From: Escherichia coli O127:H6 str. E2348/69 | GTDB lineage: Bacteria; Pseudomonadota; Gammaproteobacteria; Enterobacterales; Enterobacteriaceae | NCBI RefSeq assembly: GCF_000026545.1 | Contig: NC_011601.1 | Strand: one strand, 5' to 3' | Length of the DNA stretch: 64,000 nucleotides | Shown here: piece after piece, positions 20,457-21,146 of the stretch | How positions within the stretch are numbered: the stretch's first letter is position 1 | How the letters are laid out: every line of letters begins with the position of its first letter | Made by a program: the position numbers and the translations under genes | The notes under the pieces: model-generated | The model's input: only the letters and a program-made list of their open reading frames with translations | What the model was told of the DNA's origin: nothing | Database searches by the model: none

Positions 20457-20846
20457 TTAGTAGTTCCAGCGATAACGCTGCAAGTCGATTTGCCCTCTTC
20501 CTGACACCATCACACCTTCTGCCAGTAATGCCTGTCGCTGACGCTGTAAATCCGGTCCGGTTAGCGAAATGGTGCCGTGGCGATTAACCACCCGATGCCA
20601 GGGCAAGGTGCTGCCTTCCGGGAGACGCTTTAACACACCACCCACCTGGCGCGCGGCGCGGGGCGATCCCGCCAGTTTCGCCACATCACCGTAAGTGGTG
20701 ACATAGCCTTCGGGAATAGCTGCTACGATTTGCCAGACGCGTTGGGGAAATGAATCTTCTTTTTCCATCTTTTCTTCCTGAGGTAATTTTTCAGCATAAT
20801 CTGGAAAAACGCCCGAGTGAAGCCGCATTGCGCAAGAAACCAGCAT
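20457..20846 (-). CDS. atl: Alkyltransferase-like DNA base-flipping protein Atl (YbaZ)
   Basis: ORF-track frame 20457..20867; start at MLVSCAMRLHSGVFPDYAEKL gives 129 aa; conserved PWHRVV motif. Confidence 0.92.
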   Translation of the reverse strand: MLVSCAMRLHSGVFPDYAEKLPQEEKMEKEDSFPQRVWQIVAAIPEGYVTTYGDVAKLAGSPRAARQVGGVLKRLPEGSTLPWHRVVNRHGTISLTGPDLQRQRQALLAEGVMVSGRGQIDLQRYRWNY

Positions 20847-20922
20847 CTGGCACGCAATGGGTTGCAATTAGCCGGGGCAGCAGTGATAATGCGCCTGCGC
20901 GTTGGTTCTCAACGCTCTCAAT

Positions 20923-21036
20923 GGGGGCTCTGTTGGTTCTCCCGCAACGCTACTCTGTTTACCAGGTCAGGTCCGGAAGGAAGCAGCCAAGGCAGATGAC
21001 GCGTGTGCCGGGATGTAGCTGGCAGGGCCCCCACCC
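20923..21036 (+). ncRNA. ffs: 4.5S RNA (signal recognition particle RNA)
   Basis: 114-nt sequence GGGGGCTCTGTTGGTTCTCCCGCAACGC...GGCAGGGCCCCCACCC matches E. coli 4.5S RNA from memory; lies between atl and ybaA as in K-12. Confidence 0.95.
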
Positions 21037-21146
21037 ATTTCTGCCTCCCACCGTTTCGTCAAAAAATCCCAACATGGCTAAACTTTAACCACAACTGACG
21101 TCGCAAGAATTGTCTGGCTGCGCAGTACGCTTCGGAGGTATGTCTG

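Follow-up and report, generated by a model that had tools for sequence, protein, structure and literature searches.

Domain IV of the bacterial signal recognition particle (SRP) RNA binds the M domain of the protein Ffh, and the Ffh–RNA particle docks with FtsY and targets nascent inner-membrane proteins; the GGAA tetraloop of this domain has a role in the Ffh/FtsY interaction and in FtsY docking. Large bacterial SRP RNAs, such as the scRNA of Bacillus subtilis, share the Ffh-binding domain IV core and belong to the same Rfam clan as the small ones (CL00003). They have an extra Alu domain, whereas the RNA considered here, from Escherichia coli O127:H6 str. E2348/69, is a single hairpin of 114 nucleotides (nt) without one. 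The 3′ end of the small E. coli form, the 4.5S RNA, is trimmed by exonucleases. The closest described system is the 4.5S RNA of E. coli K-12, the product of ffs and identical in sequence to that of E2348/69, which combines with Ffh into the SRP, and this particle acts together with FtsY (PMC5499578). RNA-seq 5′ ends of K-12 ffs map mainly to position −26, with minor ends near −153 and −127, and a 5′-extended 4.5S precursor accumulates when RNase P is replaced (PMC5499578); the precursor is an RNase P substrate (PMC7049720).

Here we analysed a window of 64,000 nt from E2348/69 (NC_011601.1; the window is this whole stretch of DNA, numbered from its first base), in which an initial annotation, made by a model from the sequence alone, had placed ffs beneath two open reading frames (ORFs) that it regarded as spurious. 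Compared with K-12, the gene itself shows no difference: the same 114 nt lie behind the same promoter and between the same neighbours, with ybaZ/atl divergent upstream and ybaA downstream, at the same spacing (gaps of 77 nt on the ybaZ side, counted from the K-12 start of that gene, and of 111 nt before the start of ybaA). The surroundings differ in that E2348/69 carries an ISEc13 element between ybaY and atl, which K-12 lacks. The features of the locus are as follows (window coordinates, strand and description).

20457–20768, − strand: atl/ybaZ (MGMT family, alkyltransferase-like), divergent from ffs; RefSeq CDS, Pfam PF01035, E = 4.4e-27
20750–21088, + strand: ORF112, 112 aa, ATG start, read here as a chance open frame; overlaps atl in antisense over its first 19 nt
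20817–20999, + strand: ORF60, 60 aa, GTG start, read here as a chance open frame
20862–20890, + strand: σ70 promoter of ffs, TTGCAA (20862–20867), 17-nt spacer, GATAAT (20885–20890)
20897–20922, + strand: 5′ leader of the 4.5S precursor, which RNase P cuts off according to the K-12 literature
20923–21036, + strand: ffs, mature 4.5S RNA (SRP RNA), 114 nt, identical to K-12 b0455
20931–21027, + strand: extent of the Rfam RF00169 match and of the RefSeq/PGAP ffs (SRP_RNA) feature
20975–20978, + strand: GGAA tetraloop of domain IV (RNA positions 53–56), flanked by the GGUCAGG and AGCAGCC loops, placed from the Rfam consensus alignment
21037–21045, + strand: ATTTCTGCC, a conserved trailer beyond the mature 3′ end and a probable termination and 3′-trimming region
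20902–21018 (+), 21003–21098 (+), 20918–21034 (−), 20959–21075 (−) and 20967–21062 (−): five ORFs of 31–38 aa over ffs, read here as chance frames
21147–21500, + strand: ybaA (DUF1428); RefSeq CDS, Pfam PF07237, E = 2.3e-48

Read from 20923, the gene begins GGGGGCTCTGTTGG and ends GGGCCCCCACCC, with its last base at 21036, and it is identical at 114 of 114 positions to the curated ffs gene of K-12 MG1655 (b0455, ncRNA, 476448–476561). Because the window matches b0455 base for base here, the 114-nt extent that the initial annotation had given for the 4.5S RNA gene is exact. The Rfam scan for an SRP RNA that it had named as the check on its reading was positive: run over the whole window, the model RF00169 (Bacteria_small_SRP) matched 20931–21027 on the + strand over its full length (model positions 1–97 of 97) at 68.1 bits, well above the gathering score of 40 (E = 5.5e-13, computed for the whole window). 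The domain IV core, GGUCAGG-CCGGAAGG-AGCAGCC, agrees exactly with the RF00169 consensus. The mature E. coli RNA extends beyond the 97-nt model by 8 nt at the 5′ end and 9 nt at the 3′ end, completing the terminal stem. RefSeq labels the locus in E2348/69 ‘ffs: signal recognition particle sRNA small type’ and annotates no CDS over ffs; its PGAP feature follows the 97-nt match and falls short of the mature 114-nt RNA by those same 8 and 9 nt. A permissive Rfam scan of 20850–21110 returned one further hit, to mir-6302 on the minus strand, which scored 16.7 bits where the gathering score is 90 (E = 0.66) and is a chance match. Elsewhere in the window, four elements known from this region of the E. 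coli chromosome scored above their gathering scores: sraA (105 bits, 1625–1721, −), the DnaX ribosomal frameshifting element (96.8 bits, 37833–37897, +), naRNA4/CssrE (79.8 bits, 45820–45897, +) and sroB (81.1 bits, 51574–51657, +).

A megablast search with positions 20700–21200 found the region in 5,424 of 5,426 complete E. coli genomes, at a median of one copy, and it is 100% identical in the three E2348/69 (EPEC O127:H6) assemblies. The gene for the SRP partner protein Ffh, ffh, lies outside the window; it is single-copy and full-length in 5,425 of the 5,426 genomes. As it is missing or altered in only one genome of a set that includes three E2348/69 assemblies, at least two of these have ffh.

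The neighbouring genes and the mobile element allow some further observations. The start of atl/ybaZ is annotated differently in the two strains, giving a protein of 129 aa in K-12 (equivalent to a start at 20846) and of 103 aa in the RefSeq PGAP annotation of E2348/69 (20768). The 103-aa start has a good AGGAAG Shine–Dalgarno sequence and the 129-aa start has none; the 26-codon extension scores about 0 bits per codon, and its stretch at 20773–20825 carries indels in other genera whose lengths are not multiples of three. From these sequence features, the 103-aa start looks right. ISEc13, a member of the IS4 family, occupies 1,550 bp at 18893–20442, with a transposase ORF at 19058–20431 (+); its left end (CTGTCTCTTATACACA) and right end (CTGATCAAGAGACAG) resemble those of Tn5/IS50. 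The element is flanked by an 8-bp duplication, CCGCCCGG, at 18885–18892 and 20443–20450, and it is inserted in the loop of a hairpin, AACCCTCTCCGCCCGGAGAGGGTT, between ybaY and atl, which is probably a shared terminator; the corresponding site in K-12 is an uninterrupted 30-bp intergenic region. The insertion junction occurs in 13 of the 5,426 complete E. coli genomes, and the E2348/69 assemblies hold 27–29 copies of the IS end. Further along, RefSeq records maa (maltose O-acetyltransferase; minus strand, from about 23842 onward) as a frameshifted pseudogene in E2348/69.

Upstream of the RNA, TTGCAA and GATAAT separated by 17 nt form the sole σ70-like site within 20600–21300. All 30 aligned species share the −35 hexamer and 29 of them the −10 hexamer, the exception being AATAAT in locus L031; the 17-nt spacer varies. 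The start that this promoter predicts, at about 20897, coincides with the −26 position at which most K-12 RNA-seq 5′ ends map (PMC5499578). The leader that follows contains a hairpin (GCGTTG-loop-CAACGC, 20899–20915) whose stem is near-invariant in the 30 species, with one change, in Escherichia albertii (L003); changes in the leader fall mainly in the hairpin loop (GTTCT, GTTAA, GGAA and others). This pattern in the alignment suggests that the leader hairpin is a conserved structure within the RNase P substrate. At the other end, ACCC-ATTTCTGCC is still conserved, but beyond about 21045 conservation drops to 32–47%. A terminator scan of 20600–21300, whose definition requires a loop of 3–8 nt, found no site after ffs; its one site, at 20914–20928 in the leader and 5′ end of ffs, is at chance level (1 found against 0.9 expected). 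Since the scan was limited to such loops and gave nothing after ffs, we infer the 3′-end mechanism from the conservation to about 21045: the G+C-rich terminal stem followed by AUUUCUG would be the termination signal of ffs.

The 114-nt RNA is predicted to fold as one long hairpin of −57 kcal/mol (z = −3.15, shuffled sequences giving −44.3 ± 4.0), and 2 of 200 shuffles fold equally well. In an alignment that is shallow (10 distinct Enterobacteriaceae sequences of 98% mean identity, with the structure derived from one of them), 99.3% of cells are standard pairs and four stem pairs show compensatory double changes: G1–C110 to U–A, G3–C108 to A–U, G27–C80 to A–U and C33–G73 to U–A. At most 1 of 500 shuffles was as good, and slid registers gave 0–1 compensatory pairs and 42–50% pairing. 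The covariation thus supports the Rfam result, although it would be insufficient alone. The GGAA tetraloop is invariant in every relative examined, as are RNA positions 34–72 as a whole.

On these features, the working of the locus would follow the described system. The gene would be transcribed from the σ70 promoter, starting about 26 nt before the mature 5′ end; RNase P would cut off the leader of the 4.5S precursor, as in the K-12 literature, and exonucleases would trim the 3′ end, as is established for this RNA. Domain IV of the finished RNA would then bind the Ffh M domain, and the particle would dock with FtsY, in keeping with established knowledge.

To trace conservation, one genome of each species was scanned with an exact pattern, which gave 34 loci in Escherichia, Citrobacter, Salmonella, Kluyvera, Phytobacter, Kosakonia, Pluralibacter, Pseudenterobacter, Intestinirhabdus and an unclassified Enterobacteriaceae metagenome-assembled genome. 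Across these 34 loci ffs has 0–8 differences from the window. In 30 species, 514 nt around ffs were aligned, with the following mean identities to the window by segment.

20769–20861, 5′ part of ORF112 upstream of the promoter: 72.5%
20862–20890, promoter: 83%
20891–20922, leader: 93%
20923–21036, ffs: 98.5%
21037–21088, 3′ tail of ORF112: 48%

Judged by these identities, conservation tracks the RNA together with its promoter and leader rather than the ORFs. The two ORFs themselves are in the ORF list where the initial annotation had put them, at 20750–21088 (112 aa, ATG) and 20817–20999 (60 aa, GTG). It had described both as covering ffs; ORF112 does span the whole gene, whereas ORF60 ends at 20999 and reaches over the first 77 nt of it. 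Both the start and the stop of ORF112 are kept only in some Escherichia loci. Elsewhere, starts in its frame lie at −206, −173, −119, −113, −107, −95 or −2 and stops from +133 to +250, and in four loci whose upstream sequence is complete (L004, L019, L021 and L024) this frame contains no ORF reaching 30 aa. That the frame runs uninterrupted through ffs in most species is due only to the lack of an in-frame stop codon in the RNA. Outside ffs, the ORF parts contain indels of 1, 2, 4, 7, 10, 11 and more nt that are not multiples of three, Escherichia included: at 21045, E. albertii has 2 nt more, E. coli E69 1 nt less and E. whittamii 1 nt more, and single-base deletions in Escherichia sp. MOD1-EC7003 break the frame, which is likewise broken in E. 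albertii. The exact 60-aa ORF60 is restricted to Escherichia loci, its start not being conserved outside the genus, and its stop (TGA, 20997–20999; ffs positions 75–77) is lost in several genera, through T75G (Phytobacter, Kosakonia and UBA3516) or T75C (Pluralibacter). Directly 3′ of ffs, locus L024 (Citrobacter sp. Res13-Sevr-PEB04-36) has a 30-nt insertion of tandem CTTTCACTTCCT-like repeats relative to other Citrobacter.

Open frames of these lengths are also common by chance. In first-order Markov sequences with the dinucleotide content of the window, ORFs reaching 112 aa number 42.7 ± 6.5 per 64 kb, and those reaching 60 aa number 301 ± 14. The G+C content of ffs is 64% against 51.6% for the window, and ffs contributes no stop codon in the ORF112 frame; ORF112, ORF60 and the five smaller ORFs stay open because a G+C-rich RNA gene has few stop codons. 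Codon log-odds trained on the 28 window ORFs of at least 300 aa gave −0.16 bits per codon for ORF112 and −0.19 for ORF60, values like those of noise ORFs of 60–149 aa (median −0.23, interquartile range −0.36 to −0.01); the real neighbours scored +0.19 (atl) and +0.29 (ybaA), and ORFs of at least 150 aa had a median of +0.27. Neither ORF112 nor ORF60 matched a Pfam family at E values up to 1, in a search that recognised both atl and ybaA. ORF112 had no NCBIfam match, and the hit of ORF60 to casA/Cse1 in NCBIfam is attributable to chance (11.6 bits, with the cut-off at 70; E = 0.096). Three of the five smaller ORFs were also searched against families and matched none. With starts at −173 (ORF112) and −106 (ORF60) and the main transcription start at −26, both start codons lie upstream of the main transcript. 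The advice of the initial annotation that these ORFs should not be annotated as proteins is thus borne out from four sides, as frame conservation in 30 species, codon usage, the Pfam and NCBIfam searches and the position of the transcription start were all negative for coding.

Taken together, these data make it all but certain that 20923–21036 is ffs, the single-copy 4.5S RNA gene, and that ORF112, ORF60 and the five smaller ORFs are non-coding chance frames. We found no evidence contrary to the ffs assignment. A locus yielding both a protein and an RNA, with ORF112 a real gene overlapping ffs on the same strand, is highly improbable in our judgement. Its 112 open codons, its ATG start and the five or more genome records that list it as a hypothetical protein speak for it, as does its being intact in K-12 (with two amino-acid differences) and in some other Escherichia species; such intactness is expected anyway, because the DNA is 98–100% identical. 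Against this stand the unconserved start and stop, the frameshifting indels even within Escherichia, the noise-like codon score and the empty family searches. Both substitutions between the window and K-12 inside the ORF, at 20823 and 20856, upstream of the promoter, change an amino acid. The ATG lies 147 nt upstream of the main transcription start, the ffs promoter being the only promoter-like site; a GGGGAA run abuts the ATG with zero spacer; and the ORF, which begins antisense to atl, is not called by RefSeq.

The two remaining readings concern the RNA more directly. Translation of a short ORF from ffs transcripts would make this essential SRP RNA locus a dual-function RNA, either through ORF60, on transcripts starting at −153 or −127, or through the 38-codon ORF that begins with TTG at 20902 within the main precursor. 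The minor 5′ ends reported for K-12 (PMC5499578) do lie upstream of the ORF60 GTG at −106, and rare transcripts could include it. In almost every species examined the 38-codon ORF is open, yet it falls nearly wholly within the 93–98%-conserved leader and RNA and stays open because the RNA itself is conserved. Neither ORF is preceded by a Shine–Dalgarno sequence, both use rare start codons (GTG and TTG) and no family match was found; ORF60 in addition has a negative codon score, a start that is unconserved beyond Escherichia and a stop that is lost in several genera, and the −57 kcal/mol hairpin would occlude ribosomes. We give this reading a very slim chance. The possibility that the SRP-like sequence is not the working ffs but a degenerate or additional copy, such as a remnant that a mobile element left behind, is vanishingly unlikely. 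It might be suggested by ISEc13, about 480 bp upstream of ffs, and by the description of ffs as a phage attachment site in Enterococcus (PMC12540744). However, ISEc13 lies beyond the far end of atl and leaves ffs untouched, the promoter and leader are intact and conserved, the ybaZ–ffs–ybaA context and spacing are unchanged, the RNA is identical to that of K-12 and the 5,424 E. coli genomes carry a median of one ffs copy. A working, single-copy ffs crossed by chance frames is the reading that we retain.

Despite this, both ORF translations have entered public databases: an exact-sequence look-up found each of them in GenBank/UniProt as a hypothetical protein. ORF112 is CAR01799.1 (ECS88_0452 of E. 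coli S88; UniRef100_B7MDX7), in a cluster that includes members from Shigella dysenteriae WRSd3, E. coli O25b:H4, E. coli P12b and E. albertii, and ORF60 is CAQ90056.1 (EFER_2561 of E. fergusonii; UniRef100_B7LMC3). Fragments of ORF112 are also labelled as Staphylococcus aureus (MDG6737645.1, on a 551-nt contig) and Klebsiella pneumoniae (WP_238933333.1, on a 373-nt contig); given these tiny contigs, they may be contaminating or mis-assigned enterobacterial ffs DNA. A full-text search of a literature library returned no mention of ECS88_0452, EFER_2561, WLH_04542, P12B_c0469, B7MDX7 or B7LMC3. The deposited hypothetical proteins are automatic calls without evidence. They belong to the class of spurious ORFs that AntiFam was set up to catch (PMC3308159), in that they overlap a non-coding RNA gene, were deposited automatically as ‘hypothetical protein’ and have homologues only where the RNA gene is conserved; the 2012 AntiFam paper speaks of families derived from tRNA and rRNA and makes no mention of SRP (PMC3308159).

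As a gene, the locus is already known: ffs is among the best-characterised non-coding RNA genes, and this copy, identical to the K-12 reference, holds no biological novelty. The warning of the initial annotation has practical force because both ORFs have been deposited as hypothetical proteins by other genome projects. The value of the finding lies in annotation quality, since naive gene callers and six-frame tracks propose proteins across ffs, and screening for RNA genes before ORF calling removes them.
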